From NCBI GenBank assembly GCA_016699795.1, contig CP065011.1, forward strand, positions 1,075,449 through 1,139,448: 64,000 nt of DNA, written 5' to 3'. Positions 3,890 through 37,374 of this stretch are shown piece by piece; within the stretch, counting starts at the first letter, position 1, and every line of letters starts with the position of its first letter. Under the pieces are notes generated by a model. It was not told where the DNA came from. It searched no databases and saw nothing but the letters and a program-made list of their open reading frames with translations. A program made the position numbers and the translations under genes. This stretch comes from Candidatus Moraniibacteriota bacterium (GTDB taxonomy: Bacteria; Patescibacteriota; Minisyncoccia; Moranbacterales; GCA-2747515).

Positions 3890-6088
3890 TCATACTGAAA
3901 TAAGTTTTTTTCTTCGCTTTCGTAGATGCGCTAAAATTATTATTCCAAGGATAATAAAAAGAGAGACAAGAGAAATAATCATTCCAAGAGATGCGAATTT
4001 TTTTGGAGCGAATACAATTTCTATTTGATCACCTTCCTGTATATTTGAAAGATTCCATCCATTAAAAAATCCCAAAGATCTTTTCAAAGAAAGTGTTTCT
4101 TTTTCACCACTTGTATGTACGAGTGTCGCTGACCACAACGCATTAAATGGCTCAGAAAATGTAAGTATCTTTTGTGAAATCTTTTTATCAAAATGTATTA
4201 CATACCCTGATTCATTTTTTATATAAGAAATTGGAAGAATTTCTGTTTTATTCACATCTTCGTAAGAAGCTAAAATACTACTAGGATCATCGAGAAATGA
4301 AAAGGTAAAATTATGTACATAAAAAAGTGGGAATATCCGCTCATCTCGAAGACGATACATATCAAAAACATCTGTCTGAACAACTTTTTTCCATTCTCCT
4401 ATTTTTTCTAAATAAAGAACTTTTTCTTGAATATTTTGAAAAGATCCTGGCACTCCATCTTTATGAACAATAACATAGCGGACGTTTCCTAAACCAAGAA
4501 GAACTGTCAACCATTTTGGATCCTGATTTGATTGGGAAAAAGTTTTTGCATAATTCCATCTTTCAAAATAAGAAGATTGGGGTGATATCGTTTTTCTATC
4601 AAAAATTGAAGAAAAAATATCTTCTCCAAAATATGAATAGGAAGGAAAATAATCCCATTCACTTTCTTCGTATTTCGGTCCATAAGGAAGTCGTGCGATA
4701 AAACCATCCGCGGTACTCTCACGAAAACGCTTTCCTATTTTATAATATTCCTCAGGTAGTGTTACAAATACACCAAGGTCGAAATCATCCTCTTGTTCAA
4801 TCTCATTTTTTTCATTAATAGGAATTTGATTATTTTTATACACACCTCCCACAAAAAAAGGAAATGCAACAAAAGAAGTAAGAATAGCTGAGAGAGCTAG
4901 TGTGAAAGTAAATTTTTTAGAAAACATAGCCGCACATATCCCAATAAAAATTCCAAGGGAAGGAAGAAAAAGAAGAAAATCACTCCCATTTCCAAGAGCG
5001 GCCATTCCAGGAAGTGTCCACATTCGATTTCCAAAAAATCCTGTAAAACCAGGAAAGCCAGAAATAAAAAAAGTAAAAAATAAAAGAATAGTTGTCATTG
5101 ACCAGAAAAAACGACGACTTATTGCTAGAGAACTTTTTTTCTGTAAGAACCAGCCAGAAATAAGCCAAATAAGAGGAAGTAATGTAAGGAGTATGCCCAC
5201 TGTATGCATTCCTTTGTAGGGTGAAGCGTAAGGAAACATCTGAGCATAATTCAAAGAAAGCCATCGAGATACTTGCAATAAAGAGGAGGGCTTCTCAAGA
5301 AGATGCAAAGATTGCTCTATTCCTGTTTGTGGGAAAAAAGTATCTTTTCCATATTCAAGACGAATAAGCGCCGAAGGAATAGCATAAGCACTTACAAGAA
5401 GAAAAGAAAGGATGAGAATTCCAAAAGAAATCATCTTCTTCCAAGAAAAAAACGATTCTGTGAAAATAGCTATGGAAATTGTCATAATAAGAAAGAATAC
5501 TACGGTAACGATCAATGCTGACGGGTATAAAAATAAAGTAGAAAAAAGAAAAAAGAAAAAAGAACAAATAGCACCCATTCCAATAGAAGGGTTTCGTAAA
5601 AACATCCGATAAGAAGCAATAAATGCCGGTAAAAAGGCATAAGCAAAACCTAAAGGAGTAAAAATTTTTCCCGAAGCCACAAGATGTAAAGTAAAAATAT
5701 TTATGGCATATACAAGGGAAAAAGAAAAAACCGTAAAATGAGAAGCGTGAGGAAATACTTTATAAATAGCCCAGCGCATTGATAAAAATGAAAAAAATAA
5801 AAAGAAATCCAAATAAATAGTCAATTGTGATCCATTGCTAAAGTTAAGAGTATCTAAAAGCCAAAATACTCCATACCAAAGAAAACCTCTCCATTCACTC
5901 TCTTCTACATAAGAAAAAAAATCTTGTGAGGCATTTGTAGGCATGGAGACGCTTCCTGAAACAAGAATGGCATCATTGGCAAATGTTGCTACACCAACAA
6001 TCCATACAATAATAATAACGCCAAGAAACCGCCAACGCACATCGGAGGGGATTTTTTCTGTAAGATAAAAGAAAAGTCTTTGAAACAT
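3890..6088 (-). CDS. YfhO-like polytopic membrane protein (putative membrane glycosyltransferase)
   Basis: 732 aa. About 12 N-terminal TM helices, then a large extracytoplasmic domain and a single C-terminal TM helix (MIISLVSLFIILGIIILAHL). This architecture is typical of the YfhO family. Confidence 0.45.
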   Translation of the reverse strand: MFQRLFFYLTEKIPSDVRWRFLGVIIIVWIVGVATFANDAILVSGSVSMPTNASQDFFSYVEESEWRGFLWYGVFWLLDTLNFSNGSQLTIYLDFFLFFSFLSMRWAIYKVFPHASHFTVFSFSLVYAINIFTLHLVASGKIFTPLGFAYAFLPAFIASYRMFLRNPSIGMGAICSFFFFLFSTLFLYPSALIVTVVFFLIMTISIAIFTESFFSWKKMISFGILILSFLLVSAYAIPSALIRLEYGKDTFFPQTGIEQSLHLLEKPSSLLQVSRWLSLNYAQMFPYASPYKGMHTVGILLTLLPLIWLISGWFLQKKSSLAISRRFFWSMTTILLFFTFFISGFPGFTGFFGNRMWTLPGMAALGNGSDFLLFLPSLGIFIGICAAMFSKKFTFTLALSAILTSFVAFPFFVGGVYKNNQIPINEKNEIEQEDDFDLGVFVTLPEEYYKIGKRFRESTADGFIARLPYGPKYEESEWDYFPSYSYFGEDIFSSIFDRKTISPQSSYFERWNYAKTFSQSNQDPKWLTVLLGLGNVRYVIVHKDGVPGSFQNIQEKVLYLEKIGEWKKVVQTDVFDMYRLRDERIFPLFYVHNFTFSFLDDPSSILASYEDVNKTEILPISYIKNESGYVIHFDKKISQKILTFSEPFNALWSATLVHTSGEKETLSLKRSLGFFNGWNLSNIQEGDQIEIVFAPKKFASLGMIISLVSLFIILGIIILAHLRKRRKKLISV

Positions 6089-29316: not shown

Positions 29317-30504
29317 TTATTCTTCTTGAAACGCTTGGGAGAGGACGGATTGTTCGAGGGAGGTGAGACTATGCGTGTTTTGAATATGAAGTTCTCGAAG
29401 TTTTTTGGCTTTCTCCGATATCGCATCTAGTCGATCAACGATTTCTTTTTGTTCAGAAAGAGATGGGAGAGGGATTTTTATTTTTTTAAGTATTGTTTGA
29501 CTTAAATTTGGCTGAGCACCACCCCACGCCTTCAACAAAATATCATTTCTTTTTTTTAAAAGAAAATAATACAAATATTTATTATTTAATTTTTCTTTAT
29601 TCACAGTCATTCCTGCTATTGCTTGGTTTGTGCTCGCATCAATTCCAAGTATACCCGTCTTACCAGCCGTAGCACCATACATAGCAAATAAAACCGCTCC
29701 CTTGGAAAAGATTTTCGCACTACTTTTTTGCACAGCTTCTTTTGAAATTTTTTCTTTTGAATCCAAAATATTTACAGAATCTTTCAATTCTCCTGATTTT
29801 AACCATACAATATCTCCTTTATAATAACTTTCCATTGATCGCTTTGGAGTACCTCCGCTTGTCATTTTTAAAATCGAAGAATTTCCCAACTCTTTTTCCT
29901 CCCACCCTTTCTCTTTTCCTCCCGCAAATATTTTTGAAAGTTCGGCGGGAAGGAGCTGATTGATATCCGACAATGCTTCTTCATTGATTCGTTTGGCGTT
30001 TTGTATCTCCCCCAAAACCCTCTCTAACCTCTTCACAATCCTCTTTTGCTCTTCCAAAGAAGGAAGCGGGATTTCTATTTCCGAACATTTACTTTTATTT
30101 ATAATTGGCACAGTTGTTTTAGAAGATTTACTTTCAAAATCTTTTATCTTAGTCTGAAGAATGTAATATAAATATTCTGAATCTACCAAATTTTTAATAG
30201 GAACAAATGAATTAATTTGTTGATTTGTAGCCATTTCTTTCTTGGCTATGCTCAATTTTCCGATATTACCAATGCAACTCATTAAAACTGATCCTGACGA
30301 TATCCTTCTAATTCCAGACTCATAAAAACCCTTGTTTGATAATTTTTTCTTTGTTTCCAAAATATACTTCCCTTGATCTAAGTCTGATGGTCCTGCCCAC
30401 AAATAAGAATTTCCATAATAATCAATAATAGAAGTCTTTGGAGTATTCCCCGTTATAATCTCACACACTTCCCCAAGTTTTTTTCTTTGCCAATTATTTT
30501 TCAT
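29317..30504 (-). CDS. hsdS: Type I restriction-modification specificity subunit
   Basis: Two target-recognition domains, each followed by a conserved coiled-coil repeat (LPSLEEQKRIVKRLE; LPSLSEQKEIVDRLD). N-terminal KLGEVCEIITGNTP. Confidence 0.9.
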   Translation of the reverse strand: MKNNWQRKKLGEVCEIITGNTPKTSIIDYYGNSYLWAGPSDLDQGKYILETKKKLSNKGFYESGIRRISSGSVLMSCIGNIGKLSIAKKEMATNQQINSFVPIKNLVDSEYLYYILQTKIKDFESKSSKTTVPIINKSKCSEIEIPLPSLEEQKRIVKRLERVLGEIQNAKRINEEALSDINQLLPAELSKIFAGGKEKGWEEKELGNSSILKMTSGGTPKRSMESYYKGDIVWLKSGELKDSVNILDSKEKISKEAVQKSSAKIFSKGAVLFAMYGATAGKTGILGIDASTNQAIAGMTVNKEKLNNKYLYYFLLKKRNDILLKAWGGAQPNLSQTILKKIKIPLPSLSEQKEIVDRLDAISEKAKKLRELHIQNTHSLTSLEQSVLSQAFQEE

Positions 30505-31129
30505 AATGCTTTTTCATGTGTGGAATAAGATTGTCAAAAACATCAATTATTGAGGTTACTGACATTTCCATAAGTGAATTATTTTCAATTTTTTCTCCAC
30601 CTAAACTTTTTGGATGCACAGTATTTCGCAAGGCAACGAGGTCTTGTAAATATTTAATTGCAATATCGGTTTTAAAAAATTTAACTTGTTTGTAAAGCTC
30701 TACTAAATATCCTAAACCTAAATTCTTTGACTTTATTTTTTCTTCTGAAACTTTTTTTAAAAAACAATTTGTAGAACCTTTGTTACATTGATATTGCATA
30801 TAATCCAAAAGCAATCCTTCTACAATTGCTCCGACAATCTGGCAAATTACAAATTTATGATTTCTTTTAAAAATCGAATTGGGTTTTAAAAAAGTATATA
30901 TACTCACATGATAATCTAAAGCCATTCTTAATTCTGCAAGATTCTCTTTTAAAGTTTCGTCACAAATAAAGTCAAATACATTTCTATATCCCGTAAGACT
31001 CTTTGGGGAAATTTTTCCGCTTGGTGAATAATCTCTCCATGTACAATATTTGTCTGGTAAAAATTCCAAATTACCATGAACTTTTTCAAAACTTTCTTCC
31101 AATTCTTTCTTTTTCTTTTTCCAATCCAT
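30494..31129 (-). CDS. hypothetical alpha-helical protein embedded in R-M operon (possible HEPN-like; R-x3-H near C-terminus)
   Basis: Start placed at the ATG at 31129, 2 nt after the stop of the upstream gene. The ORF track extends it to 31219. It contains ALRNTVHP, a HEPN-like Arg/His motif with non-canonical spacing, and overlaps the hsdS start by 11 nt, implying translational coupling. Confidence 0.45.
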   Translation of the reverse strand: MDWKKKKKELEESFEKVHGNLEFLPDKYCTWRDYSPSGKISPKSLTGYRNVFDFICDETLKENLAELRMALDYHVSIYTFLKPNSIFKRNHKFVICQIVGAIVEGLLLDYMQYQCNKGSTNCFLKKVSEEKIKSKNLGLGYLVELYKQVKFFKTDIAIKYLQDLVALRNTVHPKSLGGEKIENNSLMEMSVTSIIDVFDNLIPHMKKHYEK

Positions 31130-31131
31130 AT

Positions 31132-31542
31132 TTATTTTTGAGAAAAATACATCAATCCTGTAAATAATGCTGTAAATATAGTTGCCAAACTCACTAAAAA
31201 CCCCATAATAATCTGCCAATTTCTCACAAACCAGTTTTTTGTTTTCTCTCTTCCTTTTGGAGTAAGGAAGAAAGATTGATTCTTAATTTCTCGACCTTCC
31301 AATAAAACCTCCCTCGCTTCCCCCGTCATTCCATCAATATATCCTTCTCGATAGAGATGCGCCAATGCGTTTGTAATATTCCCCGTTCCACAACCTTCTA
31401 ATTTCCATTTTTTAGGAATGGCATTTTGTAATTCAGTTGCATCCGTGTATGCCTTTTCTTTTGTAAGTTCTTCTATAATTCTAAGAACTTGTATGGTGTC
31501 TAGTTCGAAATAACTCATACTGTTTTTCTTATTTAAAGCCAT
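31132..31542 (-). CDS. PadR-like winged-helix protein with C-terminal transmembrane helix
   Basis: The N-terminal YFELDTIQVLRIIEELTKE...ALAHLYREGYIDG...FFLTPKGRE follows the PadR/wHTH pattern (L..L..EG.I...YY.LT..GR). The C-terminus has WQIIMGFLVSLATIFTALFTGLMYF. The ORF track starts at a TTG (31563); the first ATG is at 31542. Confidence 0.45.
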   Translation of the reverse strand: MALNKKNSMSYFELDTIQVLRIIEELTKEKAYTDATELQNAIPKKWKLEGCGTGNITNALAHLYREGYIDGMTGEAREVLLEGREIKNQSFFLTPKGREKTKNWFVRNWQIIMGFLVSLATIFTALFTGLMYFSQK

Positions 31543-31571
31543 TATTTCACAAAATGGTGACAAAATCCAAT

Positions 31572-31701
31572 TTTGGGTGTACTATGTGTGTAGGCGTAAG
31601 TCCTATCAGGGTTGTTCTCGATGTTCCCATCCATCGGTTGGCAAAAGTCGGGACATAACGGGCCTTGTAGGCAGTCGCCCCCTTCTGGGGGTTTTTGTTT
31701 T
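31572..31701 (+). ncRNA. GC-rich ~130-nt structured element ending in an intrinsic terminator (candidate small RNA); identity unknown
   Basis: Sharp local GC rise in an AT-rich genome. It has an internal TGTAGGC direct repeat and several short stems (CGATG/CATCG; GGGC/GCCC). The 3' end is CCCCC-TTCT-GGGGG-TTTTTGTTTT (31678-31701) on the + strand. No protein-coding potential consistent with the neighbours. Confidence 0.3.
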
Positions 31702-32350
31702 ACAAAAACAACTCATCAAACAAAACTTTTTCTCGAAACACACCGAGCCATTCCCTGTCATTTCTTTCATAGTTTCGGAATATTCCCCACGAAAGCATAT
31801 CTACAACTTGTAATCCTCTATTTTCATGAGATTTACAATGGTCAATATCCAATAAAATACTAGGAGCAAGTCTTCCTTCTAATTGCTTTCTAATATACGC
31901 ATTAAATTCTTCTATCTCTGGCTTTCCCATACATCTATCAAGGATGAATTCTACTCTATCGCCAGAATTTCTTTCAAAAGGTATTTGATCTAAGACTTTT
32001 CGTGCAACATAATTATATACACGAGATTTATTTCTTGTCAGTCTTTCGAAGACTTTCTTTTTATTAAGCGTTATCGAATACACACCAAAACGAACATCTT
32101 TTATCTGTTTATAGAAATATTTTTTTATTTCCAAAGTTGTAGAGGAGCCTTTTAATTCTTCTATTTTTCGTTTTTTGCTCTTTGATTTGTTCAATTTTCT
32201 TCTCAATGTCAGACTTACTGCTTTATGAAGTTTCCTATTTGCATCAAGTGAGCTGACTGCGACTATAGTAATAGTAAAAAACTTTGATGGTCGTTTGTTT
32301 ACGAAATCAAAACCAAGATCTCCACTTTCATCTAAATATAAATGCCACAT
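31700..32350 (-). CDS. DUF3800-family protein
   Basis: The N-terminal MWHLYLDESGDLGFDF matches the hallmark (Y/I)(I/L)DESG motif of DUF3800, and the C-terminal LQVVDMLSWGIFRNYE matches its conserved tail. 216 aa. Confidence 0.6.
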   Translation of the reverse strand: MWHLYLDESGDLGFDFVNKRPSKFFTITIVAVSSLDANRKLHKAVSLTLRRKLNKSKSKKRKIEELKGSSTTLEIKKYFYKQIKDVRFGVYSITLNKKKVFERLTRNKSRVYNYVARKVLDQIPFERNSGDRVEFILDRCMGKPEIEEFNAYIRKQLEGRLAPSILLDIDHCKSHENRGLQVVDMLSWGIFRNYERNDREWLGVFREKVLFDELFL

Positions 32351-32502
32351 ATAAATACTATTTTCTTTGTTTCTTTATTTTGCTATATTATATTTGGTCG
32401 CGAAGGTATATTCGCGCCCATGAAAATTGAGTCTTCTCATAGTGAAAGTCGGCAACATGGCCGTGCGTTGGAAAACCAACCTAGCTAGAGAGGGCTCTTT
32501 TT

Positions 32503-33924
32503 TCATATCTCTTTTTTCAATTCCTCCACCAGTTTCATTATTTCTTTTTCTCTCTCCTCTATCCCTTCAAGAATTTCTTTGGGTTCTCGGTGTATTTCTG
32601 TTTGAGCTGATGCGGGATGTTTACTATCGAGGTTGAAATCTTTTTTTTCTATTTCTTCTCGGGAAACTTTCCAAGCGTATTCGTTTTCCTTTCTATCGTT
32701 CCACCACTTTTTGAGAGGTGTAAATTCCTCATCCGTTATCCCTCGGTTTTTGGTGTATTGAGTCTTGAGATCTTTGGGAAGTGGGAGTTTGTAGTACCAA
32801 ATTTCTTTGGTGGGTTCACCTTTGGTGAAAAAAAGAAGATTCGTGTTTACTCCTGCATACGGACTAAATACCCCTTGCGGAAGTCGAACAATCGTATGAA
32901 GATTGCACGTTTCAAGAAGATGCTTCTTGATTCTCGTGGCAACGCCTTCGGCAAAGAGTACACCATCAGGAAGGACGATTCCCGCTCGTCCCCCATCTCT
33001 CAAAAGATGCACGAAAAGAAAAAGGAATAAAAGCTCTGTCGCTTTGGTTCGAAAGTCCGCAGGAAAGTTTTGCTCTACGCCATCTTTTACCGCTCCACCA
33101 AAAGGAGGATTTGCCACGATAATATCTACACGATCTTTGGCTGTGTATTCTTGATACGATTTGGCAAGCATATCATCATGCTTGATATTGTCGGGAATTT
33201 CTACGCCATGAAGGATGAGATTGGTACTTGCGAGAAGATACGGAAGATGTTTTATTTCGCATCCTCGAATACTCTCGTGAATTTTCTTTCGATCTTCGGT
33301 TGTTTTTTCTTTGGTTTCTTTGAGATATTCTAGAGCGTTTATGAGAAATCCTCCTGTACCACATGCGGGATCAAAAAGAGTTTCTCCTATTTTAGGATCA
33401 AGTGTTTCTATGATGAATTTCGTAAGCGGTCGTGGGGTATAAAATTCTCCATAGCTCCCAGCATTTTGTAGTCCCTTGAGAATCGTTTCATAAATATCAT
33501 TGAGATGGTGGCGATCTTTGTTTTTGGTAAAGTCGATTTCATTTATTTCATTGATCACTTGCCTGAGAAGTGTTCCTGACTTCATATAGTTGTATGCTTC
33601 AGAAAACATTTCCCGAACAAACAAAGCATCTTCCCTTTCTGTTTCGAGTTTTTTGAGTGTAGGGAAAAGCGTTGTATTGACGAAACTCAGAAGCTCTTCT
33701 CCTGTGATTCCCTCTTTGTCACTTGCCCAATTTCGCCATCTGATATTTTCGGGAAAGGGTGAGGAATATGAAAGATTTTCAAGTTCTCGAATTTTTTCTT
33801 GATCATCGAAAATTTTAAGAAACAAGAGCCATACGATTTGTTCGATTCTCTGAGCATCGCCTCCAATTCCTTCATCTTGTCGCATTACATTGCGGATTCG
33901 CTTGATCATTCCTTCTATGGGCAT
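32503..33924 (-). CDS. hsdM: Type I restriction-modification DNA methyltransferase subunit (N6-adenine)
   Basis: SAM-binding FDPACGTGGFL and catalytic NPPFGG. The N-terminal HsdM helical domain is present. 473 aa. Confidence 0.9.
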   Translation of the reverse strand: MPIEGMIKRIRNVMRQDEGIGGDAQRIEQIVWLLFLKIFDDQEKIRELENLSYSSPFPENIRWRNWASDKEGITGEELLSFVNTTLFPTLKKLETEREDALFVREMFSEAYNYMKSGTLLRQVINEINEIDFTKNKDRHHLNDIYETILKGLQNAGSYGEFYTPRPLTKFIIETLDPKIGETLFDPACGTGGFLINALEYLKETKEKTTEDRKKIHESIRGCEIKHLPYLLASTNLILHGVEIPDNIKHDDMLAKSYQEYTAKDRVDIIVANPPFGGAVKDGVEQNFPADFRTKATELLFLFLFVHLLRDGGRAGIVLPDGVLFAEGVATRIKKHLLETCNLHTIVRLPQGVFSPYAGVNTNLLFFTKGEPTKEIWYYKLPLPKDLKTQYTKNRGITDEEFTPLKKWWNDRKENEYAWKVSREEIEKKDFNLDSKHPASAQTEIHREPKEILEGIEEREKEIMKLVEELKKEI

Positions 33925-33927
33925 ACG

Positions 33928-36285
33928 CTATTTTTGTTGTTGGTAAATATGATTTTGTATTTCTTGTACCGCTTCGAGATAGCGATCACGACCACCAAAA
34001 GCTTCGACGATTTCAAATTGTGATCCGAATGTTATAAACGGAGCGACTTTGAGATCTTCTATTCCATCGATTGCTTCTACTCCCTGATCAGCATATTTTT
34101 CCAAAAGAGCTTCGATAACTTTTTGTGCCATTCCTTCATATTTTGTGAAAATGTCTCGTTTTTTTACTTCATCAACTCGTTCTTTTCTTGTAAGCGGTTT
34201 CTTGCCATAGGCAAGGTGCATAATAATATCAAATTCATCTATGTCTTCCATTCCGATTTCTTTTTTGAGTTCGTCAAAAAGTATTCCTTGTTCGATAAGC
34301 TCTTGTATAAGAGTTGTTTTGCGAATGTCTTTATTCCAGTCATTGAGAAAATCTTCTAAATTTTGATATCGATTTTTGAGTTGTTCACTCGCATAGGTTA
34401 TGAGAGATTCTGTAGTGAGCTTTCCTGTTTTTGGATCAATAATAGAAACGACACGATGTATCACATTGAAATCTACTTGTCCTTCTTGTATAACAATTCT
34501 CGTTTTCTTTTTTTCTTCCTCTTCATCTCTTGGAAGAAGTATTTCTTCTTCAGGATATTCTTCTCGTATTTCTTCGGGAGTTTGAGAAGTTTCGTTTATT
34601 TCTTTGGGATCAAGTTCCTCGCTTTCATTGTCTTTTATAATAGCTCGAACGGGCTCACCATCAAAATCTTTATCAGCAAAAAGTCGAGTTGCACCCGAAA
34701 AATCAAGAATAGTAAAATAGTATTTATCAAAATCACTATTGATTCTCGTTCCTCGTCCAATAATTTGCTTAAATTTGGTCATAGAGTTTATGGCACTGTC
34801 AAGAATGATCAATCGACATGTTTGTGCATCTACTCCCGTAGTAAGAAGTTCTGATGTCGTTACAATCGTTGGATAGGGAGATTCGGGGTTGATGAAATTT
34901 TCTATTTCTCTTTTACCCTCTTCTTCATCTCCCGTCATACGCATAATATAGCGACGATTCTTTTTCATCTCTTGGGGATTCCTCTGGACAAGTGCCTGTC
35001 GCATTCGTTCAGCATGTTCGATATTGGCACAAAAGATAATCGTTTTTTGCATGGGGTCAGTCTCTTGAAGATACTCGGTTATTTTATCAGCTACTTCATT
35101 GATACGATCTTCGACAATAATTTTCTTGTTATAATCCGAAACATTGTATACACCATCTTCTATACGATCGCCATCTTGATCTTTTATATATGCATCGGGA
35201 CGCCATTCAATATCTTTGTCCATTATGTAGCGAACAACTCGATAAGGAGCAAGAAAACCATCTTCTATTCCTTGCTTGAGGCTATAGGTATAGACGGGTT
35301 CTCCAAAATATTTATAATTGTCTGCACCTTCTATGGATTTCGGGGTAGCGGTAAGTCCTATATGCGTTGCGTGAGAAAAATAATCCAGGACCTCTCGCCA
35401 TGTTCCATCTTCATTGATCCCTCCTCGATGACACTCGTCGATAACGACAAGATCAAAAAAGTCCTGAGAAAACTCTCGAAAAAGTTGCTTTTCCTCTTCG
35501 TTTCCTGTTATACCTTGGTACAAAGAAATATAGACTTCATACGAATGATCTGCTTTTCTATTTTTGATAAGTGTCATTTTTTCTCCAAAGGGACGGAAAT
35601 CTTTTTGCATTGTCTGGTATGCAAGAGCCTTTCTATCTACAAGAAAAAGAATTCTCTTCTTTGTTCGAGATTTCCAAAGACGATATATAATCTGAAAAGC
35701 AGTATACGTTTTCCCTGTTCCTGTCGCCATCACAAGCATCATCCGTTTCTTTCCTTTGGCAACATGTTCAACAACCTCATTAACAGCTCTTGTTTGAAAA
35801 TATCGGGGAGTTCGTCCACTTGTGTCTATAAAATATTCTTCAGCAACAATGCCTTTTTCTTCTTCGGTTTGAATACCCTTTACTCTAAGATATCGCTCAT
35901 AGAGTTTTTCAGGAGTTGGAAAATTATCCATTTCGATCATAGTTTCTTTCCCTGTAGAAAAATCATATTCCACAAAAGCATCTCCGTTGGTCGCATAACA
36001 AAAAGGAAGTCCTATTTTTTCAGCGTATTTTTTCGCCTGCTCTAATCCATCGAAAACTCTATGTTCATTATCTTTTGCTTCAATTATTGCAAGAGGAATA
36101 TTTGATTTATATTGTAATATATAATCAGCTCGTAATGGTTTACCTCGAGAAACTACAGTTCCACGAACAATAATTCGCCCATCAGTAAAACTCACTTCTC
36201 TTCGTATTTGAGAAGGTTTCCATCCAGACTTTTCAAGGGATGGATCAATTTTTTGTGCTCGTATATCTTCTTCAGAATATTTCAT
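33928..36285 (-). CDS. hsdR: Type I restriction enzyme R subunit (endonuclease/helicase)
   Basis: N-terminal PD-(D/E)xK nuclease region (AIIEAKD), then an SF2 helicase with Walker A (MATGTGKTYTA) and DEAH-like (DECHRG). Its stop is 1-3 nt from the hsdM start. Confidence 0.9.
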   Translation of the reverse strand: MKYSEEDIRAQKIDPSLEKSGWKPSQIRREVSFTDGRIIVRGTVVSRGKPLRADYILQYKSNIPLAIIEAKDNEHRVFDGLEQAKKYAEKIGLPFCYATNGDAFVEYDFSTGKETMIEMDNFPTPEKLYERYLRVKGIQTEEEKGIVAEEYFIDTSGRTPRYFQTRAVNEVVEHVAKGKKRMMLVMATGTGKTYTAFQIIYRLWKSRTKKRILFLVDRKALAYQTMQKDFRPFGEKMTLIKNRKADHSYEVYISLYQGITGNEEEKQLFREFSQDFFDLVVIDECHRGGINEDGTWREVLDYFSHATHIGLTATPKSIEGADNYKYFGEPVYTYSLKQGIEDGFLAPYRVVRYIMDKDIEWRPDAYIKDQDGDRIEDGVYNVSDYNKKIIVEDRINEVADKITEYLQETDPMQKTIIFCANIEHAERMRQALVQRNPQEMKKNRRYIMRMTGDEEEGKREIENFINPESPYPTIVTTSELLTTGVDAQTCRLIILDSAINSMTKFKQIIGRGTRINSDFDKYYFTILDFSGATRLFADKDFDGEPVRAIIKDNESEELDPKEINETSQTPEEIREEYPEEEILLPRDEEEEKKKTRIVIQEGQVDFNVIHRVVSIIDPKTGKLTTESLITYASEQLKNRYQNLEDFLNDWNKDIRKTTLIQELIEQGILFDELKKEIGMEDIDEFDIIMHLAYGKKPLTRKERVDEVKKRDIFTKYEGMAQKVIEALLEKYADQGVEAIDGIEDLKVAPFITFGSQFEIVEAFGGRDRYLEAVQEIQNHIYQQQK

Positions 36286-36314: not shown

Positions 36315-36425
36315 ATCCTACTCCTCCCCCAAGCCAAGATCAAGGAAAAAAAGCTATTTTTCTTTCCTCTTATATTTTTTATTTTAAAAATGAAAAAAAG
36401 CTTAGCTCCCCTTCTTATTTTTTCA
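36315..36425. repeat. ~111-bp direct repeat, copy 1 (partner at 38775..38885, ~92% identity)
   Basis: Direct base-by-base comparison: atcctactcct(c/g)cc(c/t)caagcca(a/g)(g/a)atcaaggaaaaaaagct...aaaagcttagctcc(c/a)cttcttattttttcag. The copy includes the last codons (LKK-stop) of the RhuM-Doc gene. Confidence 0.85.
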
Positions 36426-37374
36426 GCAATTGCAAAATTAACCCGATCATTTTGTCTTTATCTTTGGGATCGCTCTCGGCAACCAAGAGTGTAAGAGCTG
36501 TCAGTGCTTGGGGTGACATTTTGTCTTTGTGTAATATTCCCACTTTGTTCAAAAACCAAACAAAGGCAAACGCTCCACTTCTTTTGTTGCCATCGGTAAA
36601 TGGATGATTTTTGACGAAAAAATAAAGGAGATGTGCGGATTTTTCTTCCAGAGTTTCATATGCATCACGTCCAAAGAAAGATTGAAAAACATTACCCGAA
36701 ATACCAGAAACTGCATCTTTTTGTTTTTCTTGAGCGAATAGTTCTGTTGCTTCTTCTTTCCTTTGTAAATTATATTTCAATGTTGCGATAGCATTTTCTA
36801 ATTCTTTGGCTGTTATTTTTGCTTGTTTTTTGGTCATTCCCCTTTTCGGAAAAGTTGACGTGTCATAGGCATTGAGCGATAACCACGTATCAGCAAACAT
36901 TTTCACAAGCTCCAACGTATCTCCAGCTTTAACATTTCCATTTTTTGGCAAAAGTTTTTGAACCGATTCGATCGCGCGTAGAAATTCATCGTAATTTTTG
37001 GTAATACGTTTTTTGTTTATCGTGTATCCCGTGACAATATGTTGACGTAAAGTCTTGGTCGCCCATTGACGAAATTTTGTAGCATTTACCGAGTTTACAC
37101 GATACCCCACAGAAAGAATCACATCGAGGTCAAAATATTCCACTTGATATGTTTTTCCATCACTGGCAGTTGTTGCAAAAAATGCAACAACTGAATCTCT
37201 GTGTAATTCTTCCTCTTTGAATATATTTTTTATATGACGTGAAATAACTGATTTGTCACGACCAAAAAGATCAGCAATTTGTTGCAAACTTGCCCAAAGG
37301 GTTTCTTTTTTTAGATCACCTTTAAACTCTATTTCACCATTTTTCGACTGAAAAATAATAATCTCTTTTTTCAT
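36415..37374 (-). CDS. RhuM-family protein with C-terminal Fic/Doc domain (Doc-type toxin motif)
   Basis: The N-terminal half resembles RhuM (IADLFGRDKSVISRHIKNIF...ATTASDGKTYQVEYFDLDVILSVGYRVNS..ATKFRQWAT). The C-terminal half carries HPFTDGNKRSGAFAF, the Doc/Fic HxFx(D/N)GNKR motif. Confidence 0.7.
   Translation of the reverse strand: MKKEIIIFQSKNGEIEFKGDLKKETLWASLQQIADLFGRDKSVISRHIKNIFKEEELHRDSVVAFFATTASDGKTYQVEYFDLDVILSVGYRVNSVNATKFRQWATKTLRQHIVTGYTINKKRITKNYDEFLRAIESVQKLLPKNGNVKAGDTLELVKMFADTWLSLNAYDTSTFPKRGMTKKQAKITAKELENAIATLKYNLQRKEEATELFAQEKQKDAVSGISGNVFQSFFGRDAYETLEEKSAHLLYFFVKNHPFTDGNKRSGAFAFVWFLNKVGILHKDKMSPQALTALTLLVAESDPKDKDKMIGLILQLLKK

Follow-up and report, generated by a model that had tools for sequence, protein, structure and literature searches.

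A DUF3800-V small RNA gene convergent with a DUF3800 protein gene inside a type I restriction-modification operon of a Moraniibacteriota bacterium

The window studied here is a stretch of 64,000 nucleotides (nt) from Candidatus Moraniibacteriota bacterium (contig CP065011.1 of assembly GCA_016699795.1), and all positions are counted from its first letter. A short GC-rich segment of the window, lying between two minus-strand genes, is with near certainty the gene for a DUF3800-V small RNA (Rfam: RF02964). The RNA thus belongs to a catalogued Rfam class, with which any annotation based on Rfam would label it, and is not a new class or a new kind of element. It is convergent with a gene of the DUF3800 protein family (Pfam: PF12686), and the comparison with relatives shows that the two genes are a two-part cassette which moves between genomes as one unit. 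The best overall explanation, to which we give about even weight, is a cassette of DUF3800-V RNA and RNase HII-like protein in which the RNA is a protein-bound partner, favoured to be antitoxin-like.

DUF3800-linked RNAs are among the conserved bacterial RNAs that were published with no functional hypothesis, and DUF3800 itself is emerging in retrons and in Cas12a2/Cas12a3 and VI-F loci. The DUF3800-V family was described in 2017 (Weinberg et al., Nucleic Acids Research 45:10811, PMC5737381), and to the discoverers of the DUF3800-linked RNAs no functional hypothesis was obvious. No later functional study of DUF3800, drum or skipping-rope RNAs came up in a literature search. What is new here is descriptive and concerns how the cassette is built and where it ends, the RNA promoter, the DnaA boxes that relatives have, and the copies with other partner genes. 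For DUF3800-V, the main text of the 2017 paper does not contain the convergent, stop-abutting layout, the promoter, the 796-bp borders or the orphan and re-partnered copies.

Identity, structure and transcription of the RNA

A scan of the whole window with Rfam 15 gives two matches above the gathering score. One is a tRNA-Ile located elsewhere, the other is the DUF3800-V RNA, see Table 1. The latter scores 46.8 bits against a gathering score of 37.4 (E-value 4.8e-7), covers model positions 1-96 of 96 and is recovered again by a local search. Between 29000 and 34000, searched at E-values up to 1, the only Rfam match besides RF02964 is a chance one to mir-375. With the covariance model built in this analysis, see below, the window RNA reaches 89.7 bits. 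The other properties of RF02964 are found as well, i.e., covarying nested helices, an adjoining PF12686 gene and a 3' Rho-independent terminator.

A first-pass annotation, made from the letters alone, had marked 31572-31701 as a structured RNA element with its own terminator and had proposed to follow it up by an Rfam/Infernal scan and by covariation across orthologous loci. The observation is confirmed, and its interpretation is in part right. The boundaries are about correct, as the Rfam match lies inside them and the predicted transcript runs from ~31592 to ~31701, which makes an RNA of about 95-110 nt. The GC enrichment holds, with GC at 0.54 in 31600-31699 and at 0.22-0.35 in most flanking 100-nt windows. 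The RNA segment occupies a gap of 180 nt separating the two minus-strand genes; no plus-strand protein gene lies upstream, and the short open reading frames (ORFs) that overlap the segment (31577-31813 and 31612-31863 on the plus strand, 31606-31770 on the minus strand) are spurious. At first pass the RNA had not been matched by eye to SRP RNA, 6S, tmRNA or tRNA; RF02964 is an identity that a reader of the sequence alone could not know.

Covariation was scored on an alignment of 81 sequences with a structure of five helices, P1-P5. Standard pairs are formed in 94% of the cells, and compensatory double changes occur in 23 of the 27 pairs, so the complementary segments seen at first pass are conserved helices. 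Cells with double changes number 432, compared with 122 +/- 10 in column shuffles, and when the partner columns are slid by 1-3 positions pairing falls to 20-40%. Helix P1 is 88% paired and all five of its pairs covary, although it was outside the model used for aligning. The window copy pairs throughout the family structure except for 2-3 cells of the outer stem; its P1 joins GGCG (31593-31596) to CGCC (31676-31679). The plus strand folds at -38.9 kcal/mol (z -2.3), compared with -27.7 kcal/mol (z -1.25) for the minus strand.

Conservation is higher in the unpaired columns (1.27 bits) than in the paired ones (1.05 bits). Among the conserved unpaired elements are GUAAG and the apical element GUGUUCCCAUCCAUCGGUUGGC, which lies at about 31621-31642 in the window. 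Both RNA ends are closed by P1, which leaves no variable, guide-like segment, and none is seen in the family alignment. A guide RNA had been one of the roles suggested at first pass; such a role, like that of CRISPR RNA (crRNA) with trans-activating RNA (tracrRNA) or of omega RNA, is disfavoured, as there is no variable spacer and the unpaired positions are more conserved than the paired ones.

Two repeat-based ideas do not hold either. An antitoxin made as a tandem-repeat array is rejected, as the RNA is present once in the window and 31000-32600 contains no tandem repeats besides three short AT-rich arrays elsewhere. The internal direct repeat of 15 nt reported at first pass shrinks to an exact 7-mer, TGTAGGC (31589-31595 and 31666-31672), which is due to chance. 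It is not a family feature, because other members differ in sequence at these positions, i.e., in the 5' strand of P1 and the 3' strand of P2. As a lead only, the apical GUUCCCAUCC box presumably resembles part of some bacterial 5S rRNAs; a 5S model gave no match.

The strand of the RNA follows from the paired cells. They contain 261 G-U or U-G and 25 A-C or C-A combinations, and therefore the transcribed strand is the one opposite to the DUF3800 gene. The predicted transcription start, at about 31591-31593, coincides with the first base of P1. The sigma-70-like promoter upstream of it (Table 1) is conserved: TTGACA-N16-18-TATAAT is present with at least 9 of 12 matching positions in 67 of the 81 copies, mostly ending 0-7 nt before the model start, and the match is 11 of 12 in many. 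In an independent set ascertained through the RNA, the same threshold is reached by 71 of 111 copies. L082, the closest relative with usable context, has GTGACA-N17-TAGTAT at the equivalent position. For the DUF3800 gene, the comparison with the closest relative reveals no conserved promoter.

The 5' arm of the terminator shares 2-3 nt with the 3' strand of P1, and the final two T's of its T-run are the complement of the DUF3800 stop codon (31700-31702, minus strand). The plus-strand terminator noted at first pass stands. Taken alone, it does not exceed what chance would give here (2 sites where 1.4 +/- 1.1 are expected), but a T-run terminator is kept in 77 of the 81 homologous copies. It comes in two styles. 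In 48 copies P1 (GAGCG...CGCUC) is directly followed by U4-8, while 27 copies, among them that of the window and most of them from Patescibacteria, have an additional CCCC-loop-GGGG hairpin before the T-run. On the minus strand the hairpin is not followed by a U-tract, and transcription of DUF3800 therefore probably continues into the RNA gene. Together, the conserved promoter, the terminator, the covariation and the G-U ratio support a small RNA that is independently transcribed from the plus strand, as was predicted at first pass.

It is very improbable that the segment is no independent RNA at all, i.e., that it codes for protein or that it belongs to the minus-strand mRNA of DUF3800, as a structured 3' untranslated region (UTR) or a terminator. 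There are ORFs overlapping the segment, and a 37-aa ORF has been called over the equivalent region in L082-L084. However, the substitutions are compensatory in the helices and are not patterned by codons. A minus-strand RNA would carry mismatches where the plus strand has G-U pairs, it folds worse, and it is on the plus strand that the promoter and the T-run terminator are conserved. A cis-regulatory mRNA element of any kind (riboswitch, leader or 3' UTR) does not fit, as the RNA is on the strand opposite to DUF3800 and has its own promoter and terminator.

A separate observation concerns the sequence just upstream of the promoter. A consensus DnaA box (TTATCCACA or TGTGGATAA, in either orientation) abuts the -35 hexamer of the RNA in 22 of the 81 copies (at least 8 of 9 positions), all of them in Patescibacteria-type loci, and in 33 of the 111 copies of the independent set. 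Exact boxes number 28 in the loci and the window (627 kb), compared with ~5 expected, and ~17 of them are at the -35 position of the RNA. Examples are L004 (about 4797-4805), L001 (4798), L003 (1696) and L060, which has four tandem boxes (4800-4846). The window has no DnaA box, just the degenerate ttatttcaca at 31538-31547. These boxes suggest a DnaA-coupled control of the RNA in the Patescibacteria-type lineage.

The DUF3800 protein and the two-gene cassette

In the protein encoded opposite the RNA, the residues that are invariant in the alignment include D7 and E8 in the N-terminal LYLDESGDLGFDF motif (LYLDESGD), D138, and Q181 and D184, which lie in the C-terminal motif GLQxxDxxxWG. The AlphaFold2 model is a globular alpha/beta fold with a pLDDT (predicted local distance difference test) of 77 and a pTM (predicted template modelling score) of 0.78. 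Its best Foldseek matches are archaeal RNase HII structures, first 1eke (E-value 1e-5, TM-score 0.57) and then 1uax and 2dff. RNase HII is found by the fold search only; a profile search of PDB sequences gives nothing at E-values up to 1. D7, E8, D138, Q181 and D184 would form a DEDD-like active site, and the enzyme is probably catalytically competent. PADLOC gives only a non-significant match (PDC-M10A, E-value 0.01) and NCBIfam gives none. The RNase HII-like reading is in line with two earlier papers (Mestre et al. 2020, PMC7736814; Altae-Tran et al. 2023, PMC10910872). In type VII retrons DUF3800 serves as the effector domain (PMC7736814), and it is an accessory of Cas12a2/Cas12a3-type (V-A2) loci, as well as of VI-F (Cas13) loci according to PMC12669027.

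A search with the protein finds 1631 homologues at E-values below 1e-5. The best 120 of these are 63-100% identical and about 216 aa long, and those with a source name, which are few, are Patescibacteria. A scan with one genome per species gave 448 relatives, of which 80 loci were kept. At 52-72% identity these 80 loci come from Patescibacteria, Omnitrophota, Actinomycetota, Elusimicrobiota, Nitrospirota, Deltaproteobacteria and others, including one Nanoarchaeia metagenome-assembled genome. The spread of these loci over phyla points to horizontal transfer.

Is the RNA always next to this protein? In 20 of 20 loci tested, Rfam finds DUF3800-V on the opposite strand, ending 3-25 nt past the stop codon. 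A covariance model was built from these copies and run on all 80 loci, and it places the RNA just past the DUF3800 stop codon and on the opposite strand in 78 of them. The distance is mostly at most 25 nt, often with overlap, and about 100 nt in L069. In the remaining two (L011 and L016) the contig ends at the DUF3800 gene and the position of the RNA falls outside it. All 78 testable loci found through the protein are thus positive, across phyla and over 37-100% protein identity, and no intact DUF3800 gene without the RNA was seen where this could be tested. A gammaproteobacterial plasmid, whose homologue is only 43% identical, carries the RNA next to that gene as well.

The borders of the cassette emerge from the comparison with L082, whose protein is 87% identical. 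In L082 the cassette follows a ribosomal-protein operon and a glycosyltransferase gene, and not restriction-modification (R-M) genes as in the window. DNA homology between the two extends exactly from 32351 to 31557, i.e., from the ATG of DUF3800 to the -35 hexamer of the RNA, at 78.8% identity over 796 bp. It is from these borders that we deduce a mobile cassette of two parts. The window shows its minimal form, one RNase HII-like gene and one convergent RNA gene within 796 bp, in a type I R-M operon. An imperfect direct repeat of 13 nt also flanks the RNA gene and its promoter in the window (TTATTTCACAAAA at 31542-31554 and TTGTTTTACAAAA at 31695-31707, 11 of 13 identical). It is probably due to chance in AT-rich DNA, because the unit in common with the closest relative is gene plus RNA and not the RNA alone.

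No third gene is conserved in the 80 loci, and the neighbouring families are heterogeneous. Genes of R-M systems recur most often near the cassette: on its left side N6_Mtase is seen more than any other family (8 of 68 loci), and homologues of hsdM, hsdS and hsdR are near the cassette in 12, 6 and 6 of the 80 loci, respectively. A phage origin was looked for with tblastn against 50,697 phage records and with the RNA core pattern against 2.9 million viral contigs, and neither search gave a match. One of the loci, L009, has a second DUF3800-linked RNA, RF02968 DUF3800-IX. It matches at 4912-4979 on the minus strand with 46.6 bits, against a gathering score of 36.8, and precedes the V RNA by ~150 nt on the same strand.

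Possible roles of the RNA

We consider it somewhat more probable than its negation that the RNA acts as a protein-bound partner of DUF3800. This reading is drawn from the selection on both helices and loops, from the invariable co-inheritance in loci found through the protein, and from the 11 unrelated RNA folds that are tied to the DUF3800 family, at least one of which is found in either orientation (PMC5737381). An antitoxin or regulatory RNA, which was also suggested at first pass, is plausible. The narrower proposal, that the RNA is specifically an antitoxin-like inhibitor, is made tentatively and with clearly less confidence. It follows from the near-consensus promoter of the RNA where DUF3800 has no conserved one, from the existence of orphan RNAs but no orphan nucleases, from the defence-island and R-M context, and from the role of DUF3800 as a retron effector.

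In an antitoxin-like mechanism, the RNA would be bound to DUF3800 and would work through its conserved fold and loops, and not as a guide or by plain antisense pairing. Its near-consensus promoter would supply it in excess, which would keep the nuclease silent, and infection or loss of the cassette would lower the level of the RNA and release the nuclease. The cassette could then be an RNA-protein toxin-antitoxin (TA) or abortive-infection module, and a second line of defence inside the R-M locus.

Several observations weigh against this proposal. PADLOC offers nothing beyond the match at E-value 0.01, and the discoverers offered no function. There is competition between P1 and the terminator stem over 2-3 nt of the RNA in the window. 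The strictly convergent layout abutting the stop codon is also what one expects of a 3'-overlap antisense regulator. Finally, there are RNA copies without DUF3800, which were found by scanning metagenome contigs for the apical core motif. The scan gave 123 RNA copies, 99 of them testable, i.e., with enough 3' sequence. A convergent DUF3800 gene is present in 75 of these 99 and no close one in 24, of which three have a divergent DUF3800 gene and one a frameshifted remnant. About 20 complete RNA genes without DUF3800 are left, and these are hard to square with a strictly protein-specific antitoxin.

In nearly all copies without DUF3800, the nearest sizeable 3' ORF is convergent and usually of a toxin or defence type. 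Several copies, again unfavourably for the antitoxin proposal, are convergent to unrelated toxin-type genes. The genes seen beside such copies are AbiEii (L104, L126, L190, L174), Schlafen-like genes with AlbA_2, HATPase_c_4 and winged helix-turn-helix domains (L184, L175, L154), PLD with HhH (L193) and NYN (L159, L011). The neighbour is an RDD gene in L158 and a radical SAM gene in L099. Each re-partnered RNA gene has a promoter and a terminator. Most of the neighbour ORFs run towards the RNA gene, and several of them adjoin its 3' end directly. The same upstream flank and RNA are found with AbiEii in L126 and L190 and with the Schlafen-like gene in L184, and likewise with AbiEii in L104 and the Schlafen-like gene in L154. 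Thus, the RNA gene can outlive or swap its partner. There are also second RNA copies without a detectable adjoining DUF3800 gene, in L076 (5101-5197), L011 (2761-2857), L085 and L159; in L076 the flank of the second copy resembles the last codons of a decayed DUF3800 gene. The re-partnered copies fit a positional role, as antisense or terminator, or a persistence of the RNA after the swap.

The main rival explanation is indeed a positional one, to which we assign a minor probability. The RNA would be a strongly transcribed cis-antisense or transcriptional-interference regulator, with a 3' overlap as in type I TA systems and regardless of the protein encoded opposite. It would pair with the read-through 3' UTR of an hsdM-DUF3800-...-hsdS transcript and cause processing or a block of read-through. 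The fixed convergent orientation, with the 3' end of the RNA at or over the stop codon in nearly all copies, is what such a regulator would show. The minus strand lacks a U-tract after the hairpin, a transcript from hsdM to hsdS must cross the RNA gene in antisense, and the partners facing the RNA (AbiEii, NYN, PLD, Schlafen-like) are swapped at its 3' end while the upstream flank is kept. However, a pure antisense regulator could do without a conserved fold, whereas here covariation is seen in 23 of 27 pairs and conservation is highest in the loops. Other DUF3800-linked motifs are found on either side of the gene and with both orientations (PMC5737381). As the RNA itself stops at the stop codon, any overlap depends on the 3' end of the mRNA, and the protein is an enzyme of 216 aa and not a small membrane peptide.

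Alternatively, the RNA could be an obligatory cofactor, scaffold or substrate of the protein: a subunit of a ribonucleoprotein, a sensor that is cleaved or modified upon infection, or the RNA strand of an RNA-DNA hybrid. We rate this as rather unlikely, and its guide version as the least likely form of it. Protein and RNA are co-inherited without exception when ascertained through the protein, as a cofactor would be, and enzymes with an RNase HII-like fold act on RNA-containing duplexes. DUF3800 works beside retron multicopy single-stranded DNA (msDNA) and beside crRNA loci, and in the model a basic loop of low confidence (residues about 48-67) could bind RNA. Against this, the RNA has no free single-stranded guide segment, its ends being locked in P1, and there are orphan copies of the RNA where the enzyme is missing. 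RNAduplex, run on 58 loci, shows no specific pairing between the RNA and the translation-initiation region of DUF3800: cognate pairs give -35.5, non-cognate pairs -34.2 and reversed sequences -35.9 kcal/mol, in a crude comparison with unrestricted duplex length. A near-consensus promoter for the RNA, with no conserved one for DUF3800, also suits an inhibitor in excess better than a stoichiometric subunit.

It is quite unlikely that the RNA is an autonomous small RNA gene, or a selfish mini-element, which marks the border of a variable defence slot, acts in trans on host targets or as a bidirectional terminator or insulator, and is linked to DUF3800 mainly by history. In one lineage, units of promoter, RNA and terminator do occur in at least four neighbourhoods with swapped partners, the gene-less second copies in L011, L076, L085 and L159 are of this kind, and the 13-nt imperfect repeat brackets the RNA gene of the window. 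However, all 78 testable loci that were found through the protein have the RNA, the moving unit is gene plus RNA, and for an insulator a promoter and conserved loops would be unnecessary. As to the bracketing repeat, it is AT-rich and short, and probably due to chance.

How does the proposed bound partner compare with known systems? Close to it are the other DUF3800-linked RNAs (DUF3800-I to XI, drum and skipping-rope), which are likewise structured and tied to DUF3800-type genes, several with 3' terminators, but whose sequences and folds are unrelated to V. The proposed logic is that of type III TA systems (ToxIN, AbiQ/antiQ, CptIN), in which a nuclease is restrained by an adjacent structured RNA, often in abortive infection. 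There, however, the antitoxin is processed from a tandem-repeat array and lies upstream in the same operon, whereas the DUF3800-V RNA is single-copy and convergent with its own promoter. The type III toxin is of the ToxN/AbiQ/CptN type, while here DUF3800 is the only Pfam match and the nearest solved folds are RNase HII.

In type I TA systems with a 3' overlap, such as txpA/RatA and bsrG/SR4, the gene of a small RNA runs convergently into the toxin gene at its 3' end, an arrangement like the one seen here. The type I toxin is a small hydrophobic peptide, in contrast to an enzyme of 216 aa which is predicted to be soluble and an RNA whose fold and loops are under strong selection. Here the genes are convergent and abutting, and the RNA ends at the stop codon. 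PrrC and RloC are latent anticodon nucleases with a similar placement: their genes lie inside type I R-M (hsd/prr) loci, where they may act as a back-up defence. What silences PrrC is the R-M proteins and not an RNA, and its protein family is unrelated to DUF3800. Unlike PrrC/RloC, only about 15% of the DUF3800-V cassettes are in R-M loci.

Type VII retrons (Mestre et al. 2020, PMC7736814) have the DUF3800 effector domain in common with the cassette and likewise couple it to a structured non-coding nucleic acid. They carry a reverse transcriptase, whereas none is found in or beside the DUF3800-V cassette, neither by Pfam among the neighbouring ORFs of the window nor among the 25 most frequent Pfam families listed for either flank of the relatives (68 loci per flank). 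In the retron DUF3800 clade the Q of the QxxD motif is missing (PMC7736814), and Q181 is invariant in the partner of DUF3800-V.

A more far-reaching reading, which as a whole we think unlikely, is that of a new RNA-protein TA or abortive-infection module distinct from types I and III, with a promoter wired to DnaA in Patescibacteria and an RNA gene that is a portable border or partner for AbiEii, NYN, PLD and Schlafen-like toxins. A single-copy folded RNA with its own strong promoter would restrain an RNase HII-like nuclease. In Patescibacteria, the replication status, or titration of DnaA induced by phage, would set the RNA level via the DnaA box at the -35 hexamer. If the antitoxin-like model is true, it adds an RNA-controlled nuclease module to the defence and addiction systems, one that is especially common in Patescibacteria (candidate phyla radiation, CPR). 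The comparative data delimit the cassette to clone and the mutations to make.

Surroundings of the cassette in the window

In the window, a type I R-M operon holds the cassette, with hsdM on one side of it and hsdS on the other (Table 1). This agrees with the first-pass placement of the RNA in the R-M cargo, antisense to the DUF3800/PadR-like transcript.

Table 1. Positions of the RNA, the cassette and the surrounding genes in the window.
Feature	Position	Strand	Basis or remark
DUF3800-V RNA	31585-31683	+	RF02964, full-length match; covariation; fold energy
RNA promoter	31557-31585	+	sigma-70-like; -35 GTGACA 31557-31562, 17-nt spacer, -10 TACTAT 31580-31585; 9/12 match
Intrinsic terminator	31677-31701	+	stem GCCCCC-TTCT-GGGGGT 31677-31692, then T5-G-T4
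DUF3800 gene	31700-32350	-	216 aa; Pfam PF12686, E-value 1.3e-14; RNase HII-like predicted fold
Two-part cassette (DUF3800 ORF and convergent RNA gene with promoter)	31557-32351	-	796 bp, homology to L082
143-aa cargo ORF	31132-31563	-	between RNA and hsdS; no family match
241-aa cargo ORF	30494-31219	-	between RNA and hsdS; no family match
hsdS (type I R-M)	29317-30504	-	Pfam
hsdM (type I R-M)	32503-33924	-	Pfam
hsdR (type I R-M)	33928-36285	-	Pfam
Type I R-M operon, cassette context	29317-36285	-	Pfam

The two cargo ORFs between the RNA and hsdS have no match in Pfam, NCBIfam or PADLOC and are present in none of the 80 related loci. The 143-aa ORF had been called PadR-like at first pass, a label that does not survive: neither PadR nor any other Pfam family gives a significant match even with E-values up to 10, and its absence from all 80 loci places it outside the module. 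With the TTG start that is listed for it, this ORF would overlap the RNA promoter, which makes a later ATG near 31519 more plausible. Just upstream of hsdR, at 36415-37374 on the minus strand, there is a gene of the RhuM family with Fic/DOC, an accessory type often found beside type I R-M loci.

The spacer of 152 nt between hsdM and DUF3800 (32351-32502) has a GC content that climbs to 0.49 at 32400-32499. On its minus strand, an inverted repeat (CGCGAA-tatacc-TTCGCG) stands just before a TATAAT-like box. This repeat is not common to the closest relative, in which homology begins at the ATG.

In L082 (6667-6780), L083 (1875-1988) and L084 (1631-1744), the 37-aa ORF that public calls put over the RNA gene is on the DUF3800 strand. 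These calls are probably a systematic mis-annotation of the DUF3800-V RNA in metagenome assemblies.

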